64,000 nucleotides of DNA from Candidatus Latescibacterota bacterium (GCA_965200315.1 OZ241362.1:1760001-1824000); one strand, 5' to 3'; positions 946 to 56,960 are shown, numbered from the stretch's first letter. Notes: generated by a model from the sequence alone, not told the origin. Made by a program: numbers and translations.

Positions 946-971
946 CCTTCGGCTGAGCTTAGGTCGAAACC
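946..971 (+). repeat. Palindromic 26-bp element, intergenic copy (CCTTCGGCTGAGCTTAGGTCGAAACC)
   Basis: 24/26 identical to the copies at 7091 and 20999. Confidence 0.85.
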
Positions 972-985
972 CGGAGACGATCCCC

Positions 986-1798
986 ATGGAACTTTCGCCC
1001 GCGCAGATTCGCTTCTTCAAGAGCTTCGGCTATCTCTACTTTCCGCAGCTTTTCGCCGCCGATGAGATCGCTTGGATCACCGAGGAGTTTGAGCAATCCA
1101 TCCAAGCCTATGGCAACGGCGCGCAACACGACGGCAGCAAGCGCACCATGTTCGGCGGCCCCATTGAGCACCGCGAGCGGCTGTGTACTCTCGTAGACGA
1201 CGAGCGCATCGTCGGGATCTGCAACGGCGTCCTCGGCGAAAACTTCAACTACGCCAGCGGCGACGGCAACTATTACAGCGGCGATACTGGCTGGCACCCC
1301 GATGGCAATTGGGGTCAGCTTTTCTCGGTCAAAATCGCCTTCTACCTAGACGATCTGACCCGCGACACCGGCTGCCTGCGCATAATCCCCGGCAGCCACC
1401 ACCCCAACCATTTCGTCCGCGCCGAGGGCCTTGACCTTAACAACTCCTTGGAGTTATTCGGCATCGAGCCGCGCGACTTTCCCGGCAGCCTCGCGCTCGA
1501 GACAACCCCCGGCGACCTCGTCATCTTCAACCACGACCTCTATCACTCTTCCTTCGGCGGCAACCAGCGGCGGCGCATGTTTACCATGAACCTCACCCGC
1601 CCCTGCACCAACGACGCCGACCGAGCTACCCTCAGGGACTATCTCAGCCGGCACTCTCCCGGCGGCTACCAAGTCGTCACTGGCGGCGGCATGTTCTATC
1701 CCACCATGCTCGATACCGCCAGCCCGGAGCGCATGGTGCACTTGCGCCAATGCGCCGAAGTCCACGACGAACTCTTCCCAGAATTAGCGCCGCATTGA
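986..1798 (+). CDS. Phytanoyl-CoA dioxygenase (PhyH) family Fe/2OG dioxygenase
   Basis: WHPD, GCLRIIPGSH and HDLYHSS motifs; ATG at 986 preceded by GGAGA. Confidence 0.85.
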   Translation: MELSPAQIRFFKSFGYLYFPQLFAADEIAWITEEFEQSIQAYGNGAQHDGSKRTMFGGPIEHRERLCTLVDDERIVGICNGVLGENFNYASGDGNYYSGDTGWHPDGNWGQLFSVKIAFYLDDLTRDTGCLRIIPGSHHPNHFVRAEGLDLNNSLELFGIEPRDFPGSLALETTPGDLVIFNHDLYHSSFGGNQRRRMFTMNLTRPCTNDADRATLRDYLSRHSPGGYQVVTGGGMFYPTMLDTASPERMVHLRQCAEVHDELFPELAPH

Positions 1799-1829
1799 CG
1801 GCCAGCCCACTCGTGCAGATATTTTTTCT

Positions 1830-1905
<76 letters not shown>

Positions 1906-1910
1906 TCTTT

Positions 1911-1951
1911 GCCAAAGGGGGTGCGAACGCCGTTTCCGCACCCCCTTTGGC
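1911..1951 (+). terminator. Strong hairpin downstream of tRNA (terminator or processing stem)
   Basis: Perfect 15-bp inverted repeat GCCAAAGGGGGTGCG...CGCACCCCCTTTGGC; no clear U-tract after the stem. Confidence 0.6.
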
Positions 1952-2060
1952 CGCCAATTCGCGCCTTCCCATCGTCCTCCCCCATCCTTGACATCTCGCA
2001 GTTCAAAGCATAAAATAGCCCTCGTTTCGGCCGCCTTAGCACCTCCCATTCCTCATCGCC

Positions 2061-2867
2061 ATGGCCAACTCCATAGCCAAACTGGAAAAAGCACTCCGGC
2101 GCGACCCGGATTCCCCGCGCTTTGCCCGCCTCGCCGATCTCTATCTCAAGCACGGACGCATTGAGCAGGCCCTCGAGCTTTGCCAAAAGGGCTGTGTGAG
2201 TTTTCCCGATTACGCCACCGGCTTTGTCGTCCTCAGCAAGTGCTATGAGAAACGAGGGGACTTAGAAGAAGCGCGCGAGGCCATGGGACAAGCTCTGCGA
2301 ATCGACCCAGAAAACCCCAGTGGGTACAAGCGCCTCGCCCACCTTTTTGAGCAACTCGACGTCGCGCCACTGGTCTTGCAAAGTCTGCGCCAAGCCGCGT
2401 ATTTCGACCCTTTCGACACCTCTCTAGCCGAGCAAATCGACCGCTTCTCCAGCCAAACCCACCAAGAGGCACCAACGCCCGAACCCGAAGAGGTCGTCGC
2501 TAGCACGGCCCCGGTCGAAGCCACTCAGCCCCAAGCACTGCCGCCGAACCAGGCACCGGACGACCGCGACGACCTGTACGGCGACACCGACGACCGCGAA
2601 CTGCTCCGCCTCTTGCAGGAGATCGAAGAGGAGGAAGCCGCCGAACCAGCGCCCGAACCCGAAGAGCCACCCCCCCCGGCCGACAGCGAGCCAAGCGCAC
2701 CGAAAAGCAAGCGCATTGCCACCATGACGCTGGCCGAGATCTACACCACGCAGGGCTTGACCCAAAAGGCGATCGAAACGTATCGCGAGCTGCTCGAAAA
2801 GGAGCCGAACAACACCATCATCCGCAGCAAGCTAGCTTCGCTAGAACAAAGCAGCAAAGCACACTAA
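2061..2867 (+). CDS. Tetratricopeptide repeat protein
   Basis: N-terminal TPRs (FARLADLY..G..EQA), acidic/Pro linker, C-terminal TLAEIY..QG...KAI..Y TPR. Confidence 0.85.
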   Translation: MANSIAKLEKALRRDPDSPRFARLADLYLKHGRIEQALELCQKGCVSFPDYATGFVVLSKCYEKRGDLEEAREAMGQALRIDPENPSGYKRLAHLFEQLDVAPLVLQSLRQAAYFDPFDTSLAEQIDRFSSQTHQEAPTPEPEEVVASTAPVEATQPQALPPNQAPDDRDDLYGDTDDRELLRLLQEIEEEEAAEPAPEPEEPPPPADSEPSAPKSKRIATMTLAEIYTTQGLTQKAIETYRELLEKEPNNTIIRSKLASLEQSSKAH

Positions 2868-2877
2868 CGGGAGCGAT

Positions 2878-3435
2878 ATGGCAGACACCACGGATTTTAG
2901 AAACGGCTTTACCATGTCCCTTGACGGTGAGATATTCTCCATCGTCGAATTTCAGCATGTCAAGCCGGGCAAGGGCAGCGCCTTCGTGCGCACTAAGCTC
3001 AAAAACACCAAGACAGGTGCCGTGCTCGACCGCACCTTCCGCTCGGGCGACAAAGTCGAGCAAATCCGACTCGAAAAGCGCCAGATGCAGTACCTATATT
3101 CCGACCAAGGGCTGTACTACTTCATGGACTTGGATACCTACGATCAGATCCCGGTGTCCGCCGAGACCGTCGGCACAGCCAGCGCGCTCCTCAAAGAAAG
3201 CGAGAACGCCTTCCTCCTCGTAGCGGGCGAGGAGATCGTCTCCGTCGAACTACCCAACTTCGTTTCCCTTGTCGTCACCCACACCGAACCGGGCGTCAAG
3301 GGCGACACCGCCACCGGTGCGGTCAAGCCAGCCACCCTAGAAACCGGCTACGTGGTGCAAGTACCGCTCTTTATCAACAAGGGCGACCGGCTCAAGGTCG
3401 ATACCCGCACGGGCGAATACGTAGAGCGCGTTTGA
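2878..3435 (+). CDS. efp: Elongation factor P
   Basis: HVKPGKG, GDTA, KPATLETG, VDTRTGEY. Confidence 0.98.
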   Translation: MADTTDFRNGFTMSLDGEIFSIVEFQHVKPGKGSAFVRTKLKNTKTGAVLDRTFRSGDKVEQIRLEKRQMQYLYSDQGLYYFMDLDTYDQIPVSAETVGTASALLKESENAFLLVAGEEIVSVELPNFVSLVVTHTEPGVKGDTATGAVKPATLETGYVVQVPLFINKGDRLKVDTRTGEYVERV

Positions 3436-3453
3436 GAAAGGACGACACCTCCT

Positions 3454-3918
3454 GTGAACGAAGACAAGCTCCGCAAACTGCTAGCGCTTTTTCACGATAG
3501 CGACATAGAAGAGCTAGAGGTCCAACACAGCTTCTGGCACGGCACACGCATCCGCTTAACTCGCAGGCGTGCGCCCTCCCCTGTGGCCCCTGCTGCCTCC
3601 ATGCCCGTTGCGCCCATGGTGTCCACTGCGCCCACTGAGCCTACGGCCCCAGCACCCCCTGAAAAGACCGACGACGGCCTCCACGAGGTGCTATCGCCCA
3701 TGGTCGGCACGTTTTACCGGGCCGCCTCACCCGAAGCCGATCCCTTTGTGCGCGAGGGAAATCGCATCGAAAACGGTCAGACCCTCTGCATCGTTGAGGC
3801 CATGAAGATCATGAACGAGATTCCAGCGGATGTCCGAGGCGAAGTAGTCGAAATCCTCGTCGGCGACGCCCAGCCTGTTGAATACAACCAAGCGCTGTTC
3901 AAAATTCGCCCTGACTAA
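3454..3918 (+). CDS. accB: Acetyl-CoA carboxylase biotin carboxyl carrier protein
   Basis: SPMVGTFY and EAMKIMNEI biotinylation motif; Pro/Ala linker. Confidence 0.96.
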
Positions 3919-3924
3919 GAGGCT

Positions 3925-5271
3925 GTGTTCAAGAAAATCCTCATTGCCGACCGCGGCGAAATCGCGCTGCGCGTCATCCGCGCCTGCAAGGAAATGGGCA
4001 TCGCGACGGTGGCTGTCCACTCCCAAGCCGACACCTGCTCCTTGCACGTATCGTTTGCCGACGAGGACGTCTGCATCGGGCCGGCGGCTGGCAAAGATAG
4101 CTACCGCAACATCGTCAATATCATCAGCGCCGCCCAACTGACCAACGCCGACGCGATCCACCCCGGCTATGGCCCCTTGGCCGAAAACGCCGACTTCTCC
4201 GAAATCTGCGCCGATTGCGGCATCCAGTTCATCGGCCCGCCGACTGAGGCCATCCGCAAAATGGGCGACAAGGCCGTCGCCCGCCACACCATGCAGGAGG
4301 CCGGCGTACCCGTAGTGCCGGGCAGCGAGGGCGCGCTCCACTCGCTAGACGACGCCCGTCAATGGGCGAAAAAAGTCGGCTTCCCGCTACGGCTTAAGGC
4401 GGCGGCTGGCGGCGGTGGGCGCGGGATGCGAGTCGTCCGCGCAATGGATGAATTGGAGGAAGCTTGGCAGATGGCGCGCCGCGAAGCGCGCACCGCTTTT
4501 ACCAGCGACGCCGTGTACATGGAGCGCTCCATTGAAGAGGCGCGCCACATCGAAATCCAAGTTCTCGGCGACCAGCACGGGCATCTCGTCCACCTCGGCG
4601 AGCGCGAGTGCTCCATTCAGCGACGGCACCAAAAGCTCTTGGAAGAAAGCCCCTCGCCGGTAGTTGACCCCGACTTGCGCCAGCAGCTTGGCGCGTCCGC
4701 CCTCGCCGGAGCCGCCGCGGTCGGCTACTACAGCGCGGGCACCATTGAACTCCTCGTCGATTCAGACCACAACTTCTACTTCATGGAGATGAATACCCGC
4801 ATCCAAGTCGAACATCCGGTTACTGAGATGGTCGCCGGCATCGATTTAGTCGGGGAACAGATTCGCATCGCGGCCGGCGAATCCCTCTGCTTTAGCCAAG
4901 AAGACGTCCAACTCACCGGGCACGCCATTGAATGCCGGATTAACGCCGAGGACCCCACACGCAACTTCATTCCCTCCTCGGGCATCATCGAAGCTCTCCA
5001 CCTGCCGGGCGGCCCCGGCGTCCGCATCGACAGCCACATCTACCAAGGCTATGAGATTCCTCCTTACTACGATTCCCTGCTGGCCAAAATCATCGCCTAC
5101 GGCACCGATCGCCAAAGTGCCATAGCGCGGATGCGTCGCATCTTAGGCGAATGCACAATAGAAGGCGTGGCCACCACCTTGCCCTTTCACCGAACCCTAC
5201 TCACCGAACCCGACTTTATCGCCGGGCAATTCGACACCAACTACGTAGCCAACTCAAAGTGGTCGTCTTAA
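3925..5271 (+). CDS. accC: Acetyl-CoA carboxylase biotin carboxylase
   Basis: RGEIALR, GGGGRGMR, ERECSIQRRHQK, EMNTRIQVEH, YYDSLLAK. Confidence 0.96.
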   Translation: MFKKILIADRGEIALRVIRACKEMGIATVAVHSQADTCSLHVSFADEDVCIGPAAGKDSYRNIVNIISAAQLTNADAIHPGYGPLAENADFSEICADCGIQFIGPPTEAIRKMGDKAVARHTMQEAGVPVVPGSEGALHSLDDARQWAKKVGFPLRLKAAAGGGGRGMRVVRAMDELEEAWQMARREARTAFTSDAVYMERSIEEARHIEIQVLGDQHGHLVHLGERECSIQRRHQKLLEESPSPVVDPDLRQQLGASALAGAAAVGYYSAGTIELLVDSDHNFYFMEMNTRIQVEHPVTEMVAGIDLVGEQIRIAAGESLCFSQEDVQLTGHAIECRINAEDPTRNFIPSSGIIEALHLPGGPGVRIDSHIYQGYEIPPYYDSLLAKIIAYGTDRQSAIARMRRILGECTIEGVATTLPFHRTLLTEPDFIAGQFDTNYVANSKWSS

Positions 5272-5290
5272 GCAAGCACGAGAGGCAATT

Positions 5291-5683
5291 ATGAACCAGA
5301 CCCAGATTCCCGAGCACTTGATCTACTCGGAAAGCCACGAATGGCTTCAGCTGGAAAGCGACATCGCCACTATCGGCATTACGGATTTCGCGCAAACCGA
5401 GTTGGGCGACATCGTATTCGCCGAGTTGCCCGAGGTGGGCGAACACCTCGAACGAGGCGAGACCTTTGGCACGCTTGAGGCGGTTAAGACCGTTGCCGAC
5501 CTGATCGCCCCGGCTTCCGGCGAGGTGCTTGAAGTCAACGACAGCCTCGCGGAAGAAGCCGAACAGATCAACGAAGACCCTTACGGCGGCGGTTGGCTGC
5601 TCAAAATCCGCATCAACGACTCTGCGGACTTGGAGGACTTGCTCAGCGCCCAAGACTACGCCGACCTGATCGCCGATCATTGA
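5291..5683 (+). CDS. gcvH: Glycine cleavage system H protein
   Basis: SHEW, GITDFAQTELGDIVF, lipoyl EAVK, INEDPYGGGW. Confidence 0.96.
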   Translation: MNQTQIPEHLIYSESHEWLQLESDIATIGITDFAQTELGDIVFAELPEVGEHLERGETFGTLEAVKTVADLIAPASGEVLEVNDSLAEEAEQINEDPYGGGWLLKIRINDSADLEDLLSAQDYADLIADH

Positions 5684-5811
5684 CCTTGCATTTGTTCACT
5701 ATAAGTGCGCTTTTAAGGAATGTGTATTGTATCATGGGAAGCTGGATAATAAATCCAATCCCGAGTATTGGAACATGCCAAAAGTAGCTTAAATTTAATT
5801 AGCTCTACCCT

Positions 5812-6327
5812 GTGAATAGACTCTTGTTGGAAAGAACTGTACTCGTCCTCAATCAAAACTACGAGCCCTTGAGCGTATGCAGCGTGCGCCGGGCCTTACT
5901 GCTGATTTTGCGCGGCAAGGCCGAAGCCGTCGAGAAGATGAATGAGGTAATCCATGCGGTCTCCCAAGAGTATCCGGTGCCCAGCGTCGTCCGTCTAGGG
6001 CGCTACATCCGCGCACCGCGCCGACGAGTCGTGCTGTCCAAGCGCAACATCCTCAAGCGCGACAACCACCAGTGCCAGTACTGCGGCAGCAAAGACGGTA
6101 AGCTAACGGTCGATCACATTGTGCCGCGCACCAAAGGAGGCCAAGGGACTTGGGAAAACCTCGTCTGCGCCTGCGCCCTGTGCAACAACAAGAAAGGCGA
6201 ATACCGGCCCGAGCAGGTCGGCCTCGTGCTGCGCAGCAAACCCAAGCGCCCCAATAACGTGAGCTTCATCCGCAATTTCGTCGGCATCGACGATCAGCGC
6301 TGGAAACCCTATCTTTTTATCGACTAA
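5812..6327 (+). CDS. HNH endonuclease (McrA-like)
   Basis: LVLNQNYEPL, RD.H.CQYCG, TVDHIVPR, WENLVCAC..CNNKK. Confidence 0.92.
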   Translation: MNRLLLERTVLVLNQNYEPLSVCSVRRALLLILRGKAEAVEKMNEVIHAVSQEYPVPSVVRLGRYIRAPRRRVVLSKRNILKRDNHQCQYCGSKDGKLTVDHIVPRTKGGQGTWENLVCACALCNNKKGEYRPEQVGLVLRSKPKRPNNVSFIRNFVGIDDQRWKPYLFID

Positions 6328-6340
6328 GGCAGGCGCTCTC

Positions 6341-7153
6341 ATGGAACGCGACGCAATCGAACAGGAAGAAGCGGCTCTCTACGAAGTCAAGCTCGACGTC
6401 TTTGAAGGTCCGATGGACCTGTTGCTCTATCTGATACGCAAAGACGAGTTAGACATCTACGACATTCCCATCGCCCACATCACCACCCAGTACTTGGGCT
6501 TCTTGCAACACATCCACCAACTCGACATTGAACAGGCCAGCGACTTCATCCTCATGGCCGCCACCCTACTGAGGATCAAGTCGCAGATGATGTTGCCCCG
6601 CGAAGAACTTGGTCTCGACAGCGAGGGCGAGGGCGAGGCGGATCCACAGGCCGATCTGATCCGCCGCCTGCTAGAGTATCAGCAGTTTAAGGACATTGCC
6701 GACTGGCTCGGCGTGCGTAAAGACGAGCGGCGCGATGTGTACCTGCGCCGCCAAGGGCCTAGCGATGGCGTCGAGGAGTCGGCCCAGCTACGGCCTATAT
6801 CCCTCTTCGACCTCTTGGTCGTGTACAAGCACGTGCTCGACACGGTGCCCGAAAACTTGGTCCACCAAATCGTCGACGAAGAAGTCTCGGTCGCCGAGTG
6901 CATCAACTACCTGTTGGCAGTGCTTGAGCGCAACTCGCGCATCAACTTCATGGACTTGCTCCAAGGCCGCGACCGCCAAGCCCTAATCGCCACCTTCGTC
7001 GGGGTTCTAGAACTGCTCAAGACGCAGCGCGTCCGCGTGCAGCAGGCGCGGCCCTTCGACGAGATCTGGATCGAGCAATCGCCACCCCAACCTTCGGCTG
7101 AGCTCAGGTCGAAGCCAACCGCAGCGGGGGCTGTGCAGACCCGTGAGTCATGA
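6341..7153 (+). CDS. scpA: Segregation and condensation protein A
   Basis: FEGPMDLLLYLIRK.ELDIYDIPI, FILMAATLL.IKS. Confidence 0.95.
   Translation: MERDAIEQEEAALYEVKLDVFEGPMDLLLYLIRKDELDIYDIPIAHITTQYLGFLQHIHQLDIEQASDFILMAATLLRIKSQMMLPREELGLDSEGEGEADPQADLIRRLLEYQQFKDIADWLGVRKDERRDVYLRRQGPSDGVEESAQLRPISLFDLLVVYKHVLDTVPENLVHQIVDEEVSVAECINYLLAVLERNSRINFMDLLQGRDRQALIATFVGVLELLKTQRVRVQQARPFDEIWIEQSPPQPSAELRSKPTAAGAVQTRES
7091..7116 (+). repeat. Palindromic 26-bp element in frame within scpA (PSAELRSKP)
   Basis: CCTTCGGCTGAGCTCAGGTCGAAGCC, identical to the copy in priA. Confidence 0.9.
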
Positions 7154-7799
7154 ATCCACAGCGGCCTCGCGCGACGTCAACCCTGCGCGGGCGCGGGCTA
7201 TCATTGAGGCCATCCTGCTAACCGCAACCGAGCCGGTAACCCCAGGTCGCCTCGTCGATCTGCTCGCCGGGTACAACGGCCGCGATATCCGCGAGGCCAT
7301 CGACGCGCTCAACGCCCAGTACGAAGCGGCCGGGCACGGAATCGAAGTCGTCGAATTGGCCGGCGGCTATCAACTCGCCTCGCGCCAGCAATGCGGCCCT
7401 TGGCTGCGCAAGTACCACAAGACCTCGCGCCAAGTCCGCCTCACGCCAGCGGGCCTCGAAGTCCTCTCCATCGTCGCCTTCAAGCAGCCAGTGACCCGCG
7501 TCGAGATCGACAACATCCGCGGCGTTAGTTCGGCCAGCGTGTTGCAAACGCTGATGGAACTCAACATGGTCCGCCTCGCTGGCCGCTCCGAGGGCATTGG
7601 CAAACCCATGCTCTTTGGCACGACCCGAGAATTTTTGGTTCACTTTGGGCTGCGGGGGCTGGGCGAATTGCCCAAGCCCAAGGAATTAGCAGAGCTGCTC
7701 GCCGAGGGCCAGCAGCCCACTGCCGCCCGCCAACTCGCCTCCGAGTTGAATGAGTTGCAAAAGCAGGCCGAGGAAGGGGGCGCAAGTGAACGCTCCTGA
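7143..7799 (+). CDS. scpB: SMC-Scp complex subunit ScpB
   Basis: LEVLSIVAFKQPVTR.EI..IRGV, GKP.LFGTT..FL.HFGL. Confidence 0.95.
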   Translation: MSHESTAASRDVNPARARAIIEAILLTATEPVTPGRLVDLLAGYNGRDIREAIDALNAQYEAAGHGIEVVELAGGYQLASRQQCGPWLRKYHKTSRQVRLTPAGLEVLSIVAFKQPVTRVEIDNIRGVSSASVLQTLMELNMVRLAGRSEGIGKPMLFGTTREFLVHFGLRGLGELPKPKELAELLAEGQQPTAARQLASELNELQKQAEEGGASERS

Positions 7800-8535
7800 G
7801 CCGCAAATGCGCCTCAACCGGTTCTTGGCTCGCTGCGGAGTGGCCTCGCGCCGCCACAGCGATGCGCTGATCCAAAGCGGTGCCGTGCGCGTCAACGGCG
7901 AGGTCGTCGCCGAGCCGGGGCGAGTGGTCGCAGTGAGAGCCGACCGAGTAGAGTGCCACGGCCGGGTCCTCATCCTGCCCGGCCAGTACGAATACGTGCT
8001 TTTGCACAAGCCGGCCGGATATCTAGTCACCCGCACCGACCCACGCGACCGTCCCACGGTTTTCGACCTTTTGCCCGACCTCCACCCAGGCACCGTACCC
8101 GTCGGTCGTCTCGACCTCGACACCACCGGGCTTTTGCTGCTGACCGACGACGGTGCCCTCGGCCATCGGCTGCTGCACCCGCGCTTCGTCGTCACCAAGC
8201 GCTACGAGGCCATCGTCAGCGGCGACCCGCACGAAGCCCAACTCGACCGGCTGCGCGCAGGCATCGCACTCGGCGACGGCCCCACAGCACCGGCTCAGGT
8301 GCAAGTCGAGGAGCGCTGGACCCGTGGTTGGATCAAGCAAGCGCGGCTGAGCCTTTGCATTCACGAGGGGCGCAAGCGTCAAGTCCGCCGCATGCTCCGC
8401 GCCGTCGGCTACCCAGTGCGGCAATTGACGCGGGTCGAATTTGCCGGGCTGACCCTCGGCCCACTCGCCGCCGGCCAGCACCGCCGCCTCAGCCTCGGGG
8501 AAGTTCGCCGTCTCAAAACCGAGGTTGGCTTGTGA
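7786..8535 (+). CDS. rluB: rRNA pseudouridine synthase (RluB/RsuA family)
   Basis: S4 domain RLNRFLA..GVASRR, catalytic GRLD, EGRKRQVRRM; GTG start after AGGAAGG. Confidence 0.9.
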   Translation: MNAPEPQMRLNRFLARCGVASRRHSDALIQSGAVRVNGEVVAEPGRVVAVRADRVECHGRVLILPGQYEYVLLHKPAGYLVTRTDPRDRPTVFDLLPDLHPGTVPVGRLDLDTTGLLLLTDDGALGHRLLHPRFVVTKRYEAIVSGDPHEAQLDRLRAGIALGDGPTAPAQVQVEERWTRGWIKQARLSLCIHEGRKRQVRRMLRAVGYPVRQLTRVEFAGLTLGPLAAGQHRRLSLGEVRRLKTEVGL

Positions 8536-9203
8536 AACGGCGCGGGCTAGTCATCGCCATTGACGGCACGGTCGGCACCGGCAAGACCACTACGGCGCGG
8601 CGGGTAGCTGAGCGGTTGGGCTATCGCCACCTCGACACCGGAGCCATGTACCGGGCCGTGGCCTTAGCGGCGACCCGTCGCGGGGTAGCCCCCGAGGACG
8701 AGGACGCGCTGAAGGTCCTATTGGCGACCGCGACCATAGACTTGGACTCTGGCTGGGGGCGCGTTCTTCTCGACGGACAGGACATCAGCGAGGCCATTCG
8801 CCAGCCCGACATCACCCGCCGAGCGGGTGCATACGCAAATGTGCCCTTGGTCCGCCACTCCTTGGTCGCCCAGCAGCAGCAGTTGGGGCGGGAAGGCGGC
8901 GTAGTCGCCGAAGGGCGCGACACAGCCGCGGTGGTCTTTCCCGCTGCCGAGCTAAAAATCGCCTTGGTCGCCGACCTCGATGAGCGCACCCGGCGGCGGC
9001 ATCGGGAGTTGACCACCAAAGGAGTGTGTATCACATTGGAACAAGTCCGCTCCGATATCCAAACTCGAGACCGGCAAGACGCCGAGCGCGACTACGGAGG
9101 TACGAGCGCAGCGGCCGAGATCGTCGAGATCGACACGACTCGCATGACTTTGGAAGCCCAAGTCGATTGCGTCGTCGCATTGGCCCGCCAACGCGGTGCC
9201 TAA
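8532..9203 (+). CDS. cmk: Cytidylate kinase
   Basis: IAIDG..GTGKTT, LDTGAMYRA, EGRD; GTG overlaps the rluB stop. Confidence 0.93.
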   Translation: MKRRGLVIAIDGTVGTGKTTTARRVAERLGYRHLDTGAMYRAVALAATRRGVAPEDEDALKVLLATATIDLDSGWGRVLLDGQDISEAIRQPDITRRAGAYANVPLVRHSLVAQQQQLGREGGVVAEGRDTAAVVFPAAELKIALVADLDERTRRRHRELTTKGVCITLEQVRSDIQTRDRQDAERDYGGTSAAAEIVEIDTTRMTLEAQVDCVVALARQRGA

Positions 9204-9284
9204 CTCTGGTGCGGAAAGCCCGCGCCAGTATTACACTACGCGAAGTGCGCGCTTCGCCTTAACCTTTTTGAGGATCTGCGCAAC

Positions 9285-40557: not shown

Positions 40558-40559
40558 AG

Positions 40560-47841: not shown

Positions 47842-48046
47842 TGGTCGAATCACTTTCCTTGGGGATAAACTCGCCATCTGGACACCGGAGTAATAGGTAG
47901 AAAGCGGGTAATTTTTAGCGTGGATACTCCCCTTCGCAAGGGGACAGATAGACGAGAGACGACATCCGCGCTCGTGGGGAGGTGGGGCGCGGCCGGCCTC
48001 CCCACACCTATTTTTACTCGTAGGCGAAAAGCCTTATATTCAGGAT

Positions 48047-48202: not shown

Positions 48203-48211
48203 ACCCATCTC

Positions 48212-48256
48212 ACGTAAAAAGGCTCCTAAGTATTTTACTCAGGGGCCTTTTTACGT
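48212..48256. terminator. Bidirectional terminator between convergent genes
   Basis: ACGTAAAAAGGCTCCT...AGGGGCCTTTTTACGT with A- and T-tracts on either side. Confidence 0.8.
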
Positions 48257-48272
48257 AAATAAGCCTTATTTA

Positions 48273-48614: not shown

Positions 48615-49192
48615 AATTCCTCGAATTGGGTCGGGGACTGTCTAAATTTTCCAATAATAGCTCCTTTAGCTCTTGGAATATCATCGGGAGGAAAATTCTT
48701 GTACGAGAAATCTCTGTAACATCTCTCCCCGTCTCCAAGATGATGTGAAGAGAGAACCCCTTTTATCCATTCGTCTATCGCTTTATAATGAATATTGTTT
48801 GGACGTTTATTCCTGCGAATATAAATACTTACTTGGTTGTGGTCCTTGAATCTTTGAATAAATTTTAATTTTTGATCGGCTACATTGAAATAGCAACGAA
48901 TCCTAAACGATGGGTTCTTTTTGAGCTTGTCTTGAATCGCTTCGATGAATGGATCGTAATTATACGTCGATCCTTCAAAGAAGTCTCCATCGTCATAGAT
49001 TTCTATTTCTTCCTCGGCCTCTTTGACAAGACTCGTGGCGAGATTAGCAGCTTCAAGGTTGCTGTTGTGCTTTAAACGACTAAACCCTTCTGACCGAAGC
49101 GTTAGCGCACGTTTTGCGTGACGGATGATCCTGAGTCCCATCAGCACTGTAACAATGCCGATTACTATATAGGCAAGAAGTAGGGCGGTCAT
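48611..49192 (-). CDS. Hypothetical N-anchored protein, possible PLD-like domain
   Basis: N-terminal TM; EAEEEIEIYD...RIRCYF...IHYKAID pattern; AT-rich. Confidence 0.7.
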   Translation of the reverse strand: MTALLLAYIVIGIVTVLMGLRIIRHAKRALTLRSEGFSRLKHNSNLEAANLATSLVKEAEEEIEIYDDGDFFEGSTYNYDPFIEAIQDKLKKNPSFRIRCYFNVADQKLKFIQRFKDHNQVSIYIRRNKRPNNIHYKAIDEWIKGVLSSHHLGDGERCYRDFSYKNFPPDDIPRAKGAIIGKFRQSPTQFEEL

Positions 49193-49709
49193 AGGTCAAC
49201 TCTCTTTGGGATAGAAAGCAAATTGTGTACATGCTTGTCCGTAGCTTGTTGCCGTAGAGACAACGGCCAAGCATGAAGGGTAAAAGTGGAATTGATAAAA
49301 AGGGGAGTAGGCAGAAGATTCGTGGGAAATCTTCTAAAGACGCCTACATCGAGATAAGGCAAGAAGGATGTGGGGAGCATCCCTTTTTTCCTTAAATGAA
49401 TGAGTAAAATACAGCAAGCTCCTTGGAACAAAAGAGCTTATTAAAAGCCAAATGGACATAGAAATAGGCGTGTCAAAAATCTGTGTCAAGGGCAAAAATG
49501 CCGGTTTTTTTGTAAAAAAAAATGGGAAAATTTAATAAAAAAATACAAAAAATGGGACTATTATGTCAAGTTTTTAGCTCTTGTAGCCCCCAAACCTGTC
49601 AAGCTACCCAAATTGTAGCCTCTTAAATACTGCACAAGAATATAGTATAACTGCCTTAAATTACTTATATTTAAGGTATATCCAATTCGACTATCCATAG
49701 TCCCTTTCC

Positions 49710-50443
49710 TTATACCTCTTCGGTCGACGTACCGTAATTTACGGCCTCCGTCCCTTCACAAGCTGCGTCCGCATGGATAAAGTCGAGTTGTTGGCTGTGC
49801 GGATCGCAGCGGCCGATAACGGCTTCGGTACCAGTGTAGCAAAAGGCGTCCACAGCAGGCCGGACGCCGCTTGGGCGAATTTCCAAGGCCACTGCATCCC
49901 GCTGTTTCCGGTGCTCAGGTGCCGACCATCGAGGCTGATAACGCCTCGCTCCAGCGTTGCCAGCCACGTCGAACACCCTCCCTAGCGGCTGGCCGGCAAT
50001 TTCCGTCACGCGCTCTACGCACCGATCCCCAACAAACCAGCCCCCCAACAGCCAAGACCCGCACCGAGCCATCCGGCTGCGGTTGCAAGCCCACGATGTC
50101 GTCCCTGGGCAGCCCGCCCGTGTGAGGTGGTGTACGTCCGAAAGTGGTGGCCGTTGTATGCGGCTAGCCCGCCGCCGATCGTACCGAACAGCAACCGGCC
50201 GTCGGCGTCTTCGGCAATCGCCGTTGCGGTCAGATGGGGAAACCCGTCCGACAGGCCGAAGGTGTCGAAATGCGCTCCGTCGAATCGGCTTACGCCGCCA
50301 TCGGCGGTGGCGACCCACAGCATGCCGCGGCGACCTTGGTAGATGTCTTCTATCTGAATTCCGGCCAGCCCATCAAAGACCCTGTACTAGTGCCCTAAGA
50401 TGTGCGGCCTCGGGGCCTTTACAAATTCACTCGCGCTTTGCAT
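49710..50443 (-). pseudogene. N-terminal part of the beta-propeller protein (internal stop, frameshifts)
   Basis: MQSASEF...GH*YRVFDGLAG..IEDIYQ.RRGMLWVATADGGVSRFDG, AEDADGRLLFGT. Confidence 0.7.
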
Positions 50444-50490
50444 CGCATGGCCTTCTTTGGACCTACCCCTTCCTAAGCGGCCGCACCCGC

Positions 50491-53400
50491 TCAATTAACC
50501 CTTCTTCCGCCGGCTGTGTAATCAGCGTCGGCTATGGCCGCTTCAGCCCGCTGCCGAAAAGTACTCCGCTCGGCTGTTTTGAGCGTATTCCATATCAGCA
50601 GCTCTTTGCGGATCGCCTGCAAGAAACTCCGGTTGGCCCGACGCCACGAATCGTTGTCGCCGCTGAGGCAGTGCAGATAGAACACTAGGCCGTAAATATC
50701 GGCTTGGTCTTCGGGGCGGATGCACAGCACTGCGTGCTGGCTCACGCCCAAATCCAGCGGTGCCAGCCACACCTTGGCTTCGATGGCATAAGCCGTGCCC
50801 TCGGGCGTGGCAAAGGACTGGAGCAAGGTGCCCTCGGTGTAAAACGAACCAATCGACGCCTCGCCGTACGACGCTAAGTAATCCAACAAAAAGCCGCACA
50901 GACCCTTGGCCTCGGCCGCCGACACTAAGAAGGGAAAGCGGAATTCCCACTCGGCCCCCACTGGCGGCTCGGGCTGCCAGCGCCTCACTAGGTCGGGAAC
51001 GGCAGTGCGGGCGGCCACCCGGGCTGGATACACTGTTGACAGCAAGACCACGCCCATGACGATGAGCGCCGAAAACACGGCCGCCAAAGACGAATAATTC
51101 AAATTGAGTCCGCCCAGCATGCCCCAGTGGTTTAGCACCAAACCCATCCCTTGCCCCCCCAAGTACCCCAGCGTAATGCCCAAGACCGCATAGGCGCAGG
51201 CTTCGGCGATAAACAGCAAGGCGATATGAGACGGGGCCAATCCTACGGCCGCGTAGATACCAATGTCCTTGAGGCGCTCGTACACCGTCCCCAGCATGGT
51301 ATTGAGGACGATGAAAGCCGCGATGAGCATGGGTACGATCAGCACCCCTAAGCCCTTTATCGCCGTCGCCCCAATCGACGAATAGGCCCAGACGCCGATG
51401 GTCGAGGCTTCGTCTTGTCGCAAGCCGACGAACAGGCTGACGGCCACCCGCAACAGAAAGTCTTCCAGCAACGCTTGGGCCGCCCCAAGGTCCTCCCGGT
51501 CAAAAGCGATGGCCACCGAGCGCAGCCGCCCCCCCATTTGGCGGACGATCTGATATGGCGCAATGAGCACGTTGTCCGGCAGTATGTGTACATAGGGGCG
51601 GTACTGAGCGGCGGTAGCTGTCGTGGCCGTGCTCTCGTTGAGCTGAAAGGTGCTGCCGGCAGTCCTAGACAGCTCAAAATCCACCGGCGTCAGCGGCCCG
51701 TCGTCTAGGTCGCGGATGTCGTTGAAAACCGCTGGGTCGAACAAGCCCACTACAGTCAGTTCTTTGCCCATTACCTGCACTTGCGCACGTCCCAAGTCGC
51801 CAGCATCCAAGCCTAGGGCCTCGGCCATCGGCAAGGGCAGCAGACAACTAGCCTCGGTCGCGGCGGTAAAAAAGCGCCCAGCCGTCAGGGCTTGGTCAAT
51901 GCCTGTGATGTCGGTTTCCGCGGGATTTAGGCCGAGCAAGCCATAGGTCCGCACCAATTGCCGCTCGGACGCGGCTTCGAGGTACGTCTTTTTGTCCTCC
52001 TGCAAAATGAACCAGTTGCGCGGACTGATCGGGCCGACTGCGGCAAAGTGGGATCGGATGTAATCCAACATGGGCTGGCCCAAGGGACTCCAAGCCCGAT
52101 TGCGGACCAAGAGGCCCTCGTACTCACCCTCGTGTTCGAGAGGCAACGAGATAAAGCGCGCTCGGCTCTCGTACGAGGCAAAGGAGAGCACCGTAAACGT
52201 CAGCAGCACTAGGGTCGTCAAGGTCAGGCCGGTGCGCAGTTTGCGCCGCCGCATGTTGGATATGCCCAGCATAAACGCGGCATGGGCGACGCTGAAACGC
52301 CGCATCTCAACGTGGTGGATCTGGTCGCCGCGCTCCTTCATAAAACTGTTGAAGCGGCTGCCAATGAGGACGAGGACGAGACCGGCCATGGCCATGATAG
52401 CAAAGGCCAGCAAAATGACCAGCGGATGGGCAATGGCAAAGGCGGGATGCACCTGAGAAACCGCGAGCCAGACTGCGGCCAATAACGCGCCAAAACCCGC
52501 TAATTGCCGCGTGATCTGCGCTGCTCCCAGCAGCAGGCGCTCGCCCAAAAAGGCCGCGGGAATGAGCAGCGCCAAGAAGAACACCATACCCTTTATGACG
52601 TCGTTTAAGGTCGCCATAGTCTGGGGATAGACTTGGTTTTCCAGCCCCAACGCCGCCCGCAGATGGGCCACGTAGCGGCTCCATTCTTTTTGCTGGGCGG
52701 CCTCTTCGGCGGCTGCGAGCACTTGGGCGGTGCGCTGGTGCAGGTGCTGCAAGTGCTGGTTTTCAATGGCGTGGTCGCGCATGGTCTGCAACCGATCCTC
52801 GTCGAGACGCCACATATCCCAAGCGGCCTGCAACAGCGTCGGCATCAGTCGCTCTTCGGCTAGGTCAAAGCCCTCGCCGTTGGGTCGGCTGTCGGGGATG
52901 CCGTTGTTGAGCAGCAGCAGTTGGCGGCCCGCCAGTATCTTGATGCGGTTTTGCGGGCCGGCGTCCTGCGGCCCGAATACCACCCCGGCCGCTTCGTCGA
53001 GGCCGTTGCCCAGCGCATAGCCGTATTGGCGCGGGGCGGTGTCGTAGCGGTTGAGCACAGTGATGCCGCTCAAGAAATTGAGCGAACGCGGATTAATGAG
53101 GCCGTAAAAAGGACGGCTCAGGCAGGGAAACACCACCACCGGCTGCTCGGTGAGCGCCCACTGGACGGTGCTGGGAATGGAACCGTCGGGCAGCGATGCC
53201 CCGTGGAATCCTTCCGCCCTTTTGCTCAGATCGGCGGCATAGGTAATGGCCCCGTCTTCTGGGTCCAAGACGTACACGTTGGTGCGATATTGGGCTTGCG
53301 GCAGCCCCGTTATGAGCAGCTCGCCCTCGGCGTCGCTCAGATAAACTTGGGCCGTGCGCACCCCTTTGACGGCTTTGCCGGCGGCGGTCGCCCGTTGCGG

Positions 53401-54900
53401 TCGCACCACGGCTACCGCGTCGGCTACCGGCCGGTCCGGCGTTTGCGAGCGGCGCGGAAAGGTCCGCACCTTGAGGCGCAAGTCGCGCAAGCGATCCTGC
53501 AGCACCGGCCCAAAGGCCGCTTTCTCCTCCAACAACTGCGGATCGTTTAGGGCCTGTTGCAGCACGCCGTTTATCAAGGCGACTTGGCGCGCCAGATTGT
53601 CGTAGTTGACCGCGGCGGGCTGGTCCAACGGCGAATCGATCTGCAAGCGGGCGTCGTTGACGGTAATCAAGCCCAAGGAGATCAAGCCTCCTTCGAGGGC
53701 GAGCTGACTATTGGCGGCGATGCCACCGGGCATGTACGCCGACCAGTCCAAGCCCTTGATGGGGGTGATGCCGTTGACCAAACGGCCGACTGCGGCCGAG
53801 TCTAGGGTGCTGGCGTAGTTGCTGAAGCGGCGACCGAATGGGGCGAAAAAGCGCCGCAATTCGGGCCTAGCGGTATTGTTCCAGAGGCCGACTTGATCGG
53901 TGCGGCTCGACAGATCGAGGCCGATGAACAGGTCTATGTGGAGCGGCTCCTCCAAGCGGCGGTCGTGGCGAGCGAGAAAGTCGGCCATGCCTTGGCGGCC
54001 CTGAAAGTGAGCCGACGTTGCCACCAAAATGGTGGTGCGCGCCGGCGGATGGGCCGCGAGCTGGCGGGCTAGCTCCAATAAAGCGGCCACGCCACAGGCG
54101 GCCTCGGCGCTGGGCGCCCGGCCCGGCACCACGGAAATGCCGTCGTAGTACGCCTCGATAGCAACGCGCTCGGCGGCCAGCTCGGGATCGGTGCCGGGGA
54201 TTGTGCCCCAGATATTCCACGCCGGCCGCCGTTGCCAGTCCATGCGGCCCTCTAAATGCACCAATAGCTCGCCGGCCCGCAGGCGCTGGCGCAGGTCTAG
54301 GCCCGCTTCGCGCTCGATCCAGAAGCGGGGGATGTCGAGCGGCACGTGGGCGTACTTGGCGGCGGCTTGGTGGCGGTTGGCCTGCTCGGGCGCGATGAAT
54401 ACCACGGCCCGGGCACCCAGCGACGCGGCCCGCAGCCAGTGGTTCCAACTGTCGAATTCCAGCAGGACAATGCGCCCGTCAATAGCTTGGCCGTCGAAGT
54501 CGCGCCACGCACCACGCCCTCCGTAGATCATCGGTGCTCGCAGGCCCTGCGGTAGCGTTATTGTCCGCGCCAGATTGGGCCACAGGCCCCACAGCGGCAC
54601 CTGCTCCCCGCTGGGCTCCAAGCGCAGGCGACTGCCGAGCTCTATGGGCACCACCACGGCAAATGAGTCGCGCTGCACCCCTGAGACGCCAGCCGCGACC
54701 AGTTCGCGCTCCACCAATGCAGCACCCGCTTCGGCACCGGGATAGCCAGCCAAGCGCGATTCGACCGCGCTTAGGGCTTCGATCGCGGCCCGCAAGAAAG
54801 CCACCTCTCCGTAGCAGGGCATTGGCAGCAGCAGCCCGACGAGACATAGGCTGTCCAGCCACCGATAAGTCGCTTTGCCAGCCATGCTGTTCAACCCCAA
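50491..54900 (-). CDS. Giant membrane protein: M28-peptidase-like/PA domain + TM bundle + MacB-like periplasmic domain + FtsX-like permease
   Basis: NIWG.IPG.D..L..E.V.I.AYYD, SNMRRRKLRT.LT, LNTMLG.VYER..DIGIY..VGL.P; 1469 aa. Confidence 0.8.
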   Translation of the reverse strand: MGLNSMAGKATYRWLDSLCLVGLLLPMPCYGEVAFLRAAIEALSAVESRLAGYPGAEAGAALVERELVAAGVSGVQRDSFAVVVPIELGSRLRLEPSGEQVPLWGLWPNLARTITLPQGLRAPMIYGGRGAWRDFDGQAIDGRIVLLEFDSWNHWLRAASLGARAVVFIAPEQANRHQAAAKYAHVPLDIPRFWIEREAGLDLRQRLRAGELLVHLEGRMDWQRRPAWNIWGTIPGTDPELAAERVAIEAYYDGISVVPGRAPSAEAACGVAALLELARQLAAHPPARTTILVATSAHFQGRQGMADFLARHDRRLEEPLHIDLFIGLDLSSRTDQVGLWNNTARPELRRFFAPFGRRFSNYASTLDSAAVGRLVNGITPIKGLDWSAYMPGGIAANSQLALEGGLISLGLITVNDARLQIDSPLDQPAAVNYDNLARQVALINGVLQQALNDPQLLEEKAAFGPVLQDRLRDLRLKVRTFPRRSQTPDRPVADAVAVVRPQRATAAGKAVKGVRTAQVYLSDAEGELLITGLPQAQYRTNVYVLDPEDGAITYAADLSKRAEGFHGASLPDGSIPSTVQWALTEQPVVVFPCLSRPFYGLINPRSLNFLSGITVLNRYDTAPRQYGYALGNGLDEAAGVVFGPQDAGPQNRIKILAGRQLLLLNNGIPDSRPNGEGFDLAEERLMPTLLQAAWDMWRLDEDRLQTMRDHAIENQHLQHLHQRTAQVLAAAEEAAQQKEWSRYVAHLRAALGLENQVYPQTMATLNDVIKGMVFFLALLIPAAFLGERLLLGAAQITRQLAGFGALLAAVWLAVSQVHPAFAIAHPLVILLAFAIMAMAGLVLVLIGSRFNSFMKERGDQIHHVEMRRFSVAHAAFMLGISNMRRRKLRTGLTLTTLVLLTFTVLSFASYESRARFISLPLEHEGEYEGLLVRNRAWSPLGQPMLDYIRSHFAAVGPISPRNWFILQEDKKTYLEAASERQLVRTYGLLGLNPAETDITGIDQALTAGRFFTAATEASCLLPLPMAEALGLDAGDLGRAQVQVMGKELTVVGLFDPAVFNDIRDLDDGPLTPVDFELSRTAGSTFQLNESTATTATAAQYRPYVHILPDNVLIAPYQIVRQMGGRLRSVAIAFDREDLGAAQALLEDFLLRVAVSLFVGLRQDEASTIGVWAYSSIGATAIKGLGVLIVPMLIAAFIVLNTMLGTVYERLKDIGIYAAVGLAPSHIALLFIAEACAYAVLGITLGYLGGQGMGLVLNHWGMLGGLNLNYSSLAAVFSALIVMGVVLLSTVYPARVAARTAVPDLVRRWQPEPPVGAEWEFRFPFLVSAAEAKGLCGFLLDYLASYGEASIGSFYTEGTLLQSFATPEGTAYAIEAKVWLAPLDLGVSQHAVLCIRPEDQADIYGLVFYLHCLSGDNDSWRRANRSFLQAIRKELLIWNTLKTAERSTFRQRAEAAIADADYTAGGRRVN

Positions 54901-56960
54901 AAAATCACATTGCCGACCGTGCCGGTAAAATGGTCGATGACTAAGAAGATGCCGCCCGGCAGCAGTTGCCCCAAGATCAGGCCCATAAAAAACGGCCTAG
55001 TCCGATGATAGCGGTCGGCACCTCCATACTTGAGCACGAGGACTTTGATAAACCAAGCCAAAAACATATTGAACCACAGGTGATCCATAATCCAAGTCGG
55101 CCCAATGGGATAGCCCAAAGGGTGCAGGGGCCACCAAGCGTAGTGCCACCGGGCCACGGTCAAGCCCAGCATGATAGCCGCGCCCAAGCCCATATTGATC
55201 CAGCCCCACAGGTGCAGCTCGCTCGGATAGCGCAGGAGGCTCTCGACATAGCGGTAGGGGGCTTCGCGACTGACCATGGCCCGCAGATTGAGGTTGCCGT
55301 GCTCGTAGCTCAGCGCCAAGATCATCCAAGTCGAAGCCGCTAGCGCCACGGCTATGGCCGCGACCATGGCCCAGAACAAAGGCCGACGACTCGGCTGAGC
55401 TCGCCGAAGTCGCCCCCGGCCCAATTCCTGACTCAGCTTCAGGCTGTTGGCGCAGGAGGCCATGACAAAGCTGCGGACATTGGCCGTCCAGATATAGGTG
55501 CTGGCCAGCAAGACCAAGCCCGGTGCCCCCAGCGCCGACGAGCCTACCGCGGAAATGAGGATGCCAGCCGGCACCACGGGCGGAGCGCCGTCGGACAGAC
55601 CGCCCTCGGCGACCACCCGGGTGAAGGCGACAAAAAGGGCCCCGGCCAAAAAGAGCAACGCCGCACCGGCCCACAGCGGCAATCCAGCCAGCCACAGCCA
55701 GCCGATCATGATCGCCGTGCCGACGGCGAGAATGATCACGGCCGCCCGGTACGACAGGATTTCGTCGGCGTCGTCAATGGCCGGATCGCCGGACCAAGCC
55801 TTGCGCCACACCGCGGCCAGATGGCGGCGGGCGGCCCACAAGCCGCCGAGAAAGAGGACCAACATGGCACCCATGGCGTGATAGACCTGCAAAGTGTGCC
55901 GGATACCATGGCCACTACCCAAGCTGGGCGTATTGCCTATGCCGAGGATGGCCAAAGTGCCGCGCAAGACATTGGCCAACAAATTGAAAACCCACAGACT
56001 GAGCGCGACTTCGGTCTTGAGGAAATAGAAAAACCCGAAGATGTGGAAGCGGAAGATGACATGCAGCGTAGAGGTCCCGCGCATGATCGGCAGTTCTTGG
56101 TGGAACAGATCGACGCCGCGAGCAAAATGTACGCCTTCCGGGAAATAGGCGTACAGGCCGTGCAGCGTGCTCCAAGTGGCGGCAAGGGCAAAGCCGATCC
56201 ACATCCCCCGATTTTTGAAAAAGGGCGGCCAGCGCTCCGTTCCCTCTCCCATCGCGGTCATAGCTAGCGGCACTTGCACCAGCGGATAGACGAGGCGCTC
56301 GTTGTCGATCCACTGCCGCCGCAGAACGACCATGATGGCAATCATCACCAAGAAGAGGGACCAGATAAAGGGCTGCCAAGCCGCCAGCGCCAGTAGCCAA
56401 GCCTTCCACGGCACCGCGTAGGAGGCACCCATCCCCTCAAAGAAAAACTGAGCGTCGCCGAGCTGGCGCGGCATCATCCAGTGGGGGATGTGGGGGTGGA
56501 TGAGGCTTTGCCAATCGTTTTCGGGCGTGGCAAAGTAAAAGGGAGCGACGAGCTGGCTGATGATCTTTGAGGTAAAAACGACGGGGATAGGCGAGGCCAT
56601 CACCATCATGACATAGACCAGTAGCAATTCGCCTCGGCGCAAACCCGGCCTCCCACACAGTTTGAGCAGGGGATTGACCAAGCCCGTCAGCAGGGCCAGC
56701 AGGCAAACCGCCCCGACTGTGCTAAAGCCCAAGGCCATGAAGGAGCCTTGCAAATACAGGGTACTATAGGCCACGCCGCCGCCGATGAACGCGGCCAAAA
56801 AGGTGCCCAAGGCAAAGGCCCGGAGCGTAAAGGCTGAGCCAGCTTCTTCTACGGCCGGCTCCGGGTCGGGCGGCTCTAGGTCCAGCCGCGAGCGAAAGGC
56901 CGCTGGCAGCAGCCAGCCGACCCTTCCCGGCTCAGGTGCAGTAGATCCAGTCTCCGGCAT
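54891..56960 (-). CDS. Multi-pass membrane protein, DUF6785/DUF6784-like
   Basis: RRQW...ERL.YPL..VP and C-terminal WWPLHPLGY...W..K..VLKYGG...PFF.GLILG. Confidence 0.78.
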   Translation of the reverse strand: MPETGSTAPEPGRVGWLLPAAFRSRLDLEPPDPEPAVEEAGSAFTLRAFALGTFLAAFIGGGVAYSTLYLQGSFMALGFSTVGAVCLLALLTGLVNPLLKLCGRPGLRRGELLLVYVMMVMASPIPVVFTSKIISQLVAPFYFATPENDWQSLIHPHIPHWMMPRQLGDAQFFFEGMGASYAVPWKAWLLALAAWQPFIWSLFLVMIAIMVVLRRQWIDNERLVYPLVQVPLAMTAMGEGTERWPPFFKNRGMWIGFALAATWSTLHGLYAYFPEGVHFARGVDLFHQELPIMRGTSTLHVIFRFHIFGFFYFLKTEVALSLWVFNLLANVLRGTLAILGIGNTPSLGSGHGIRHTLQVYHAMGAMLVLFLGGLWAARRHLAAVWRKAWSGDPAIDDADEILSYRAAVIILAVGTAIMIGWLWLAGLPLWAGAALLFLAGALFVAFTRVVAEGGLSDGAPPVVPAGILISAVGSSALGAPGLVLLASTYIWTANVRSFVMASCANSLKLSQELGRGRLRRAQPSRRPLFWAMVAAIAVALAASTWMILALSYEHGNLNLRAMVSREAPYRYVESLLRYPSELHLWGWINMGLGAAIMLGLTVARWHYAWWPLHPLGYPIGPTWIMDHLWFNMFLAWFIKVLVLKYGGADRYHRTRPFFMGLILGQLLPGGIFLVIDHFTGTVGNVIFWG
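55388..55411 (-). repeat. 24-bp sister palindrome in frame within the DUF6785-like gene (RLRRAQPS)
   Basis: GACTCGGCTGAGCTCGCCGAAGTC on +; shares TCGGCTGAGCTC and CGAAG with the main element. Confidence 0.75.

Follow-up and report, generated by a model that had tools for sequence, protein, structure and literature searches.

The closest known kind of element to the one described here is represented by the 'very small mobile repeated elements' of cyanobacteria (SDRs). Their units are reportedly 21-27 nt long, dispersed, mobile and able to nest, and their hairpins are said to show compensatory changes, according to an account ascribed to Elhai 2008 (Genome Res 18:1484). Here, we analyze units of comparable size in a stretch of 64,000 nucleotides from an uncultured, sponge-associated bacterium of Candidatus Latescibacterota (GCA_965200315.1 OZ241362.1:1760001-1824000). 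This whole stretch is referred to as the window; its source genome, a single 5.36-Mb contig with 59% G+C, is labeled G000, and the window corresponds to G000:C1:1760001-1824000. Two sister sequences are at issue, the 26-mer CCTTCGGCTGAGCTCAGGTCGAAGCC (family A) and a 24-mer (family B), which were followed through a genus set of 31 genomes, i.e. G000 and 30 other species genomes of the same genus (labels of the form G0xx). We consider it likely that the copies in the window belong to a family of mobile mini-elements with a stem-loop anatomy, whose types add 24 bp (A and B) or 27 bp to the DNA they enter. To our knowledge, residence mainly within genes and in frame, and lengths divisible by three, were not the emphasis of the work on SDRs; nor do we know of an explanation, since the cyanobacterial SDRs were described, for the movement of units too small to hold transposase-binding ends.

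Two further systems provide background, namely IS608, which transposes as a single strand in a 'peel and paste' manner, and the Rickettsia palindromic elements (RPE), which are several-fold longer (~100-150 bp) than the present units. The likeness to SDRs comprises the size class (24 and 27 bp here, against the reported 21-27 nt), the dispersed copies, the presence and absence that signal mobility, the self-nesting and the compensatory hairpin changes, all of which were found when looked for, as well as A copies that lie within tandem heptamer repeats in metagenome contigs. The likeness to SDR1-8 is one of description. The hosts differ as well: SDRs are known from Nostocaceae, whereas the present units occur in a genus of Latescibacterota and in Kovacikia (Leptolyngbyaceae), and we list the G+C content of probably cyanobacterial contigs with A (47-63%) as another difference. 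In excerpts of papers that cite the SDR work, SDR5 inside HIP1 is presented as a precise insertion at a short target, which resembles the behavior of A and B; one citing paper reports that, among HIP1-rich cyanobacteria, SDR-like repeats were not found beyond the Nostocaceae. As far as the relevant sections of Di Nocera et al. 2013 (PMC3733652) go, REPs are short (20-40 bp), imperfect palindromes, some of them in frame inside genes, often those for replication or repair, and REPs of the CGTC type are also found without a dedicated transposase. The same sections describe RPE as palindromic and in frame in genes that apparently still function, which is like A and B, but as confined to Rickettsia and as carrying the CGTC tag, which is not. 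REPINs and RAYT (Y1 HUH) transposases are treated by Bertels & Rainey 2011 (PMC3116915, in extract). Compared with REPs and REPINs, A and B are mostly intragenic, do not form inverted pairs and lack a co-occurring RAYT/Y1 protein; neither A nor B contains the tag GTAG or its complement, and CGTC is found only as its reverse complement, formed where B meets its flank at the frequent junction CGAC|GAC. Elements of the IS200/IS605 type share with our units an asymmetric hairpin that distinguishes the strands, a short specific target with little or no duplication and, possibly, the strand bias of A; they differ in that no Y1 transposase tracks our element, that it has one hairpin and not two ends, and that variant stems do not retarget it. 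Going by these excerpts, very small mobile repeats of this size, in-frame REPs within open reading frames (ORFs) and REP super-families without a dedicated transposase are already in print. What appears to be new is the host phylum, the sequence identity across phyla, the rule of a fixed loop plus a free stem, the divisibility of every length by three (24, 24 and 27) and the mainly intragenic life.

All copies of family A in the window lie on the plus strand. Two are perfect: 7091-7116, in the region for the C-terminal tail of ScpA, and 20999-21024, in the zinc-ribbon region of PriA between its two cysteine pairs. Two have two mismatches: 14384-14409, in the linker between the substrate-binding domain and the SpoU methylase domain of an RlmB-like protein, and 946-971, close to a PhyH-family gene. 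Family B has one match in the window, at 55388-55411 (plus strand; one mismatch against the genus consensus), near the end of the DUF6785 domain in a gene on the minus strand. All five copies had been named in the original prediction, a model's reading of the window without database searches. At up to three mismatches, 100 dinucleotide-preserving shuffles of the window contained no match to A, and none to B was found in shuffles. The genome-wide count that the prediction proposed at the same threshold yields 23 A copies in G000 (13 plus, 10 minus; 10 perfect), all with unrelated flanks. G000 furthermore holds 13 B copies, and copies are mostly single.

The alignment of orthologs reveals that the A, B and 27-bp units are true insertions whose site occupancy differs among sister species, in agreement with the original suggestion of a mobile micro-repeat that adds a net 24 bp and keeps the frame; an exact 24-bp gap is seen at every site in the window. 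The PriA site is empty in 14 of 16 orthologs from the genus, each shorter by exactly 24 bp and with the expected single-CC allele (GGCGA-CC-CAC); G014 is filled, and G002 is filled and possesses a second 24-bp element (B) nested inside the first. For the copy at 946, G003 and G010 are empty and exactly 24 bp shorter, and G014 has a variant copy at the same place. The scpA site is empty by 24 bp in G012 and G003 and filled in G013, and in G014 and G010 a B unit is nested within the filled copy. Exact 24-bp gaps are likewise observed at the rlmB site (G012, G013) and, for the B copy at 55388, in five of five relatives examined (G013, G003, G010, G014, G012).

The converse comparison gives the same picture. 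Among 29 loci around A copies of relatives, G000 shows an exact 24-bp gap at 14 and a filled site at six; two contain odd derivatives, and seven have no usable alignment. One derivative, of 33 nt, is an A unit whose 3' half is longer by seven bases; the other, of 32 nt, is a remnant of A and B such as an 18-bp deletion between the two TTCGG repeats of a nested pair would leave. The two derivative copies are located at C1:3830446-3830876 (locus L325) and 1426757-1427185. For B, the reverse test provides an exact 24-bp gap in 11 instances, representing eight distinct sites, and seven more instances with larger gaps, in which host and nested element are both absent. A TPR-like gene of G000 (3672047-3673618) accommodates two A and three B copies, none of these five sites being occupied in G009, G004 and G001, which are free of the element. 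An unbiased sample of 97 kb of alignments (window 1-20000 against five relatives) contains nine gaps of 24 bp, eight of which correspond to A or B; the remaining long gaps reflect changes in tandem repeats or fall into variable regions. Where B is nested in A, as in PriA of G002 and ScpA of both G014 and G010, the point of entry is identical; B inside B is also found, and A inside A is present in metagenome contig L217. A third type is a 27-bp insertion with the stems CGTT/AACG or CGGT/ACCG, matched by a 27-bp gap in three of five relatives at one site and in five of five at another. A 15-bp remnant retains only one end of the unit.

Some observations on these alignments stand apart from the element. 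In the scpA region (window 6341-7900), G010 is 94.6-95.6% identical to G014, compared with 89.4% in the 3 kb upstream (3000-6000), and judged from these identities the contrast appears as an evident signature of local recombination between species. Precise excision was considered as the cause of the empty scpA sites in G012 and G003, and was set aside because recombination between G010 and G014 explains their shared filled allele at least equally well. Species also differ in length by 19-60 bp at window positions 11058-11067, 16855-16905 and 18846-18946, unrelated to the hairpin elements; the differences at the first are tandem-repeat expansions (GAGCAAGAC-type units), and the other two sites lie in variable regions. 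In L234, a hybrid type is nested in itself, for which, by eye only, a 25-nt reading is possible.

The host genes named in the original prediction are confirmed by Pfam: scpA (6341-7153), a SpoU/RlmB-type methylase gene (14100-14867), priA (19229-21853) and a gene for a DUF6785/DUF6784 protein (54891-56960, minus strand). The predicted peptides are present in the translations as well, i.e. PSAELRSK in ScpA and PriA, LQLSSGRS in the RlmB-like protein and RLRRAQPS in the DUF6785 protein. Less clear-cut is the copy at 946, which had been called intergenic. It lies about 15 nt upstream of the likely ATG of the PhyH-family gene, and a position in an intergenic stretch or 5' leader is plausible: the Pfam PhyH domain covers only residues 39-225 of the longer ORF 902-1798, and an ATG preceded by GGAGA is found just downstream of the copy. 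That longer, TTG-started ORF nonetheless includes the copy. For the whole of G000, coding context was assessed for 30 A matches at up to five mismatches, with genes taken from a rough caller of our own (4287 genes, 88% of the genome). Most of these matches (26/30) lie within ORFs, 25 of them in called ORFs and the remaining one being the rlmB copy, whose ORF the caller missed; three overlap a gene end, and one is intergenic. The 23 secure intragenic copies use the four open frames only: seven are read in the sense frame of the PSAELRSK type, eight in that of the LRLSSGRS type, six in the antisense frame of the LRPELSRR type and two in that of the GFDLSSAE type. The prediction that four of six frames are open and that different ones are used is hence borne out for all four. 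A copies in a stop-containing frame occur at natural gene ends only: three sit exactly at ACC|TAA or ACC|TGA, and the gene now stops at the element's own TGA, two codons later. With lengths divisible by three in all types and four of six A frames open, copies can persist inside genes as inserts of eight or nine residues. In one RNA-library contig (X4), the rlmB copy is read through continuously, so that this contig retains the unit; carry-over of DNA is possible, however.

What the unit looks like as a structure was examined by covariation. For this purpose, 179 A copies, drawn from G000, relatives' loci, metagenome contigs and Kovacikia, were clustered by their flanks into 117 independent sites. 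Variants are over-sampled by design in this set, since 60 of the loci were fetched for their non-consensus copies (one G012 copy was left out). The original prediction had proposed a hairpin with CTTCG/CGAAG ends and a perfect CTGAGCTCAG core. Neither pairing agrees well with the variants: the pair 8-17 of the proposed core is C-G in 98 sites, a wobble in one and broken in 18, and the pair 2-24 of the proposed ends is C-G in 99, a wobble in 11 and broken in seven. By comparison, the pair 2-17 is C-G in 99 sites, T-A in 11, G-C in four and G.T in one, and is broken in only two, with double compensation in 15 of 18 variant sites; the pair 3-16 is T-A in 105, C-G in five and a wobble in four, and is broken in three. 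The fold supported by this covariation is thus a stem of 3-4 bp of free sequence (positions 1-3 with 16-18) around a conserved 12-nt loop, TCGGCTGAGCTC. The shared anatomy consists of such a free stem strand, the loop TCGGC(T)GAGCTC, the other stem strand and a tail of 5-7 nt. The subtypes T2/A17, G2/C17 and C3/G16 each occur at several unrelated sites, which indicates that the compensated variants themselves have propagated, and comparison with the empty alleles at two T2/A17 sites shows the stem's 5' strand to move with the insert. Further stems, e.g. GAGT/ACTC and GCGT/ACGC, are found in metagenome contigs. In B, the bottom strand reads GACT-TCGGCGAGCTC-AGTC plus a tail, the same architecture as in A. 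A scan of G000 for the loop TCGGCTGAGCTC (up to one mismatch) found 29 of 86 occurrences closed by at least three Watson-Crick pairs versus 0 of 21 in the reversed control; for the 11-nt loop TCGGCGAGCTC, the stem-closed fraction was 23/641 versus 4/344.

At its borders, type A is followed by CC, and by CCT in 35 of 39 metagenome copies; adenine directly precedes the unit at 24 of 54 sites in the genus and at 20 of 39 in the metagenome contigs. B sits after GAC, CAC or AGC, and enters other elements at TCGAC^(C)TGAGCTC or GAGC^TC. The CC...CC junctions of the original prediction accordingly describe type A and are not general: the only junction feature shared by all types is a single C on both sides, to which B, the T2/A17 subtype and the 27-bp type are limited. 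Variant stems retain the CC target, so the stem does not seem to guide the choice of target.

The family is widespread, albeit unevenly, within the genus. A is found in 19 of 31 genomes (0-23 copies each) and B in 17; the two families co-occur in 17 genomes, A stands alone in two with few copies, and 12 lack both. Controls with reversed patterns gave 0 throughout the 31 genomes for A and B alike. In a tree of a single gene, PriA, the element-free G009 and G004 nest in the element-bearing clade with a support of 95/99. A scan of the phylum found matches in 22 of 168 genomes, 20 of which belong to this genus. The original prediction had regarded the repeat as lineage-specific, which did not hold up, for the exact 26-mer occurs in 50 metagenome contigs of 47-63% G+C; 44 of these give no match to G000 by BLASTN at E <= 1e-20, and the top match of the remaining six has 73% identity. 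In these contigs the unit lies within long ORFs for a P-type ATPase, a TonB receptor, MalT-like regulators, a phosphoglucomutase and TnpB, and in L220, L224, L237, L240 and L243 copies are placed amid the tandem heptamer repeats. For two contigs tested in a protein atlas, the nearest clusters are commonest in Cyanobacteriota; both are probably cyanobacterial, which we treat as a lead, not as proof. A named cyanobacterium, Kovacikia minuta, carries one copy on its plasmid pA, a compensated CG...CG variant followed by CC. A 61-nt nested-A query against PLSDB returned no copy in any Nostoc or Anabaena plasmid, the Kovacikia copy being the sole element-like match, and a collection of viral contigs contained 0 copies of the exact 26-mer. 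Literature searches, to which supplementary files did not belong, returned only an unrelated paper for a 13-nt part of the element and no description of such elements outside cyanobacteria. From the presence of the same 26-mer in probably cyanobacterial DNA it follows that either the machinery has spread horizontally or a host activity is very conserved.

As to the mobilizing enzyme, the original statement that none is visible is supported: among the families profiled across the genus, none tracks the element. The RAYT/HUH search that it proposed found no such link, for the Y1_Tnp profile (PF01797) matches in 15 of 31 genomes and does not track A or B. Nor does the distribution of reverse transcriptase (RT; PF00078, RVT_1), which 15 of 31 genomes contain, follow that of the element: G010 has 20 A copies and no RT, while G001, G009, G041 and G042 have an RT and no element. 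The same is true of the TNB domain of TnpB (PF07282). Repeats of at least 400 bp in G000 were listed, and ten ORFs were run against Pfam (the best pair of one repeat, single ORFs of six others among 12 repeats, and two from other loci); the scan found IS1595-like and IS5-like transposases, and the other repeats scanned were duplicated ordinary genes. With regard to a larger master element, mutual comparison of the 400 bp on either side of 16 copies that are intergenic or odd showed only the element itself to be shared, except for two overlapping windows from one locus. A possible restriction link of the GAGCTC in the loop was dropped, because its observed/expected ratio of 0.57 is unremarkable in a genome that avoids most palindromic hexamers.

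Our preferred explanation is that A, B and the 27-bp type are very small, non-autonomous mobile DNA elements that insert precisely beside a C (CC or CCT for A). A unit may move as a folded single strand, and an enzyme supplied in trans might recognize the loop plus the stem, cutting and joining next to the C. The single-strand mechanism with a trans-acting enzyme is a tentative proposal, to which we give somewhat less than an even chance. Such an enzyme could be widely conserved or travel horizontally, given the same 26-mer in probably cyanobacterial DNA. A hint at a single-strand mechanism comes from strand bias: for 18 of 23 A copies (p = 0.011), the top strand coincides with the lagging strand as defined by skew, and within regions of clear skew it does so for 13 of 18 (p = 0.10). 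The skew curve is asymmetric, so that the replichores, with origin and terminus, are uncertain; the bias of B (9/13) is not significant. Going further, one may think of a cross-phylum class of 'coding-compatible' mini-transposons with a fixed loop signal, a variable stem, a length tuned to multiples of three and an enzyme that is either new or of a universal host type unrelated to the Y1/HUH, DDE and RT transposases. We regard this as rather unlikely; if true, the class would colonize the coding 88% of compact genomes and seed surface loops in essential proteins such as PriA and ScpA.

Several results weigh against the preferred explanation. The predicted folding of the single-stranded DNA is weak (-4 to -5.4 kcal/mol, z no lower than -1.8) and no better than that of shuffles; the case for a structure is hence made by covariation, not by energy. 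The top strand of the B consensus is predicted hardly to fold, and in our reading of the copy lists the equivalent stem pair of B is often broken in variant copies. Junction overlap amounts to 2-3 nt in A and to 1 nt in B, the T2/A17 subtype and the 27-bp type, and neither a fixed target duplication nor a clean rule of no duplication is established. Variant targets do not match variant stems, which argues against a guide-to-target pairing in the style of IS608. The gene caller is crude, and three of the 30 A matches, with 4-5 mismatches, are doubtful and outside the open-frame pattern. PF01797 is absent from the element-rich genomes G012, G010, G038, G014 and G003; G000 itself has no RVT_1 match, and its TnpB is a 49-residue remnant only. 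The IS1595-like and IS5-like elements of G000 were rejected as mobilizers because their ends are unlike A or B. Furthermore, 24-nt presence/absence variants were sought at covered sites in contigs of four public runs, and none was seen in these contigs, which drop rare variants.

Among the other explanations, the most serious is that a housekeeping DNA enzyme (e.g. a topoisomerase, a Xer-type recombinase or a repair nuclease) mobilizes the stem-loop by accident, in which case one seed copy would suffice. It would account for the identical 26-mer in unrelated, probably cyanobacterial, contigs and in a genus of Latescibacterota, for the failure of all tested transposase families to track the element, and for the nested position of G009 and G004 in the PriA tree. 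We nevertheless consider it distinctly unlikely, as 12 of 31 genomes lack any copy despite recombination between species, which is odd if any cell propagates a seed. A minimal miniature inverted-repeat transposable element, which would consist of two short terminal inverted repeats only and be moved by a resident DDE transposase of an insertion sequence (IS) with a 2-bp CC duplication, is suggested by the CC on both sides of type A, by its inverted CTTCG/CGAAG ends and by the presence of several-copy IS1595-like and IS5-like elements in G000. Yet it is improbable in view of the unlike IS ends, of an apparent duplication that varies between types as given above, and of positions 1-3, which covary with the internal positions 16-18 and not with the other terminus.

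More improbable still is RNA-templated insertion, in which nicks would be filled by an RT that copies a small RNA template. Identical, very short units and the 15-bp remnant with one end only would suit such a process, but G000 contains its 23 A copies, 10 of them perfect, without an RVT_1 match, RT does not track the element across the genus, and the flank comparison revealed no larger conserved template locus around any copy. That the units are not mobile at all, and reflect replication slippage or template switching at hairpins, homologous recombination alone, or an assembly or adapter artifact, is hardly credible. Recombination between species around scpA (G010 and G014 at 95% versus 89% in the 3 kb upstream) and the breaking of Logan contigs at the element might be cited in its favor; against it stand more than 100 unrelated sites with one unit and exact boundaries, many of them private to one genome, copies in 19 genomes of different assembly projects and in contigs of independent runs, and the empty reversed-pattern controls.

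With its mobile family of A, B and 27-bp units, the genus represents a natural experiment: it offers dozens of dated filled and empty sites, nested events, and propagating subfamilies with compensated stems that define the functional structure, and because some sister genomes bear elements and others do not, the enzyme could feasibly be sought by phyletic profiling. In addition, the elements steadily supply core proteins with insertions of 8-9 residues, which bears on the origin of protein loops. Finally, metagenome-assembled genomes are affected, since de Bruijn contigs break at copies. In four public runs, the Logan contigs all end or start inside the scpA element (window 7089-7117); the 26-mer is an assembly-graph repeat that fragments short-read assemblies.

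G000 contains other repeats that are distinct from A and B. Its sole Y1 match is a Y1-like domain in a 1241-residue ORF of the DUF1156/methyltransferase type, which lies amid a different, mostly intergenic REP-like hairpin family with the core GGCGAGACGCCC (67 exact matches in G000). This family clusters around the ORF at C1:705360-709082 and 712797-713062 (locus L320); with DUF1156, a D12-methyltransferase signature and a partial Y1_Tnp domain, the ORF has a REPtron-like look and is unrelated to A and B. Two more dispersed and mostly intergenic motifs have the cores CAGATGGACGCAGA (25 copies) and GTAGGATTGCTATA (23 copies) and often occur near each other. Sets of CRISPR-like repeats are very large, with units present ~246, ~109, ~30 and ~17 times according to 14-mer counts. 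Strong avoidance extends to many palindromic hexamers, among them CAGCTG, TTCGAA, GTGCAC and GTCGAC (observed/expected 0.07, 0.08, 0.10 and 0.16), which suggests heavy pressure from restriction-modification systems. The cumulative GC skew reaches its maximum at 0.42 Mb and its minimum at 4.17 Mb and is flat from 2.7 to 4.2 Mb; from this shape, either the replichores are very unequal or the contig is rearranged or misassembled. Within the window, G+C falls to 0.52 (against ~0.61 elsewhere) at 48001-52000, where a 1469-residue ORF begins (50491-54900, minus strand).

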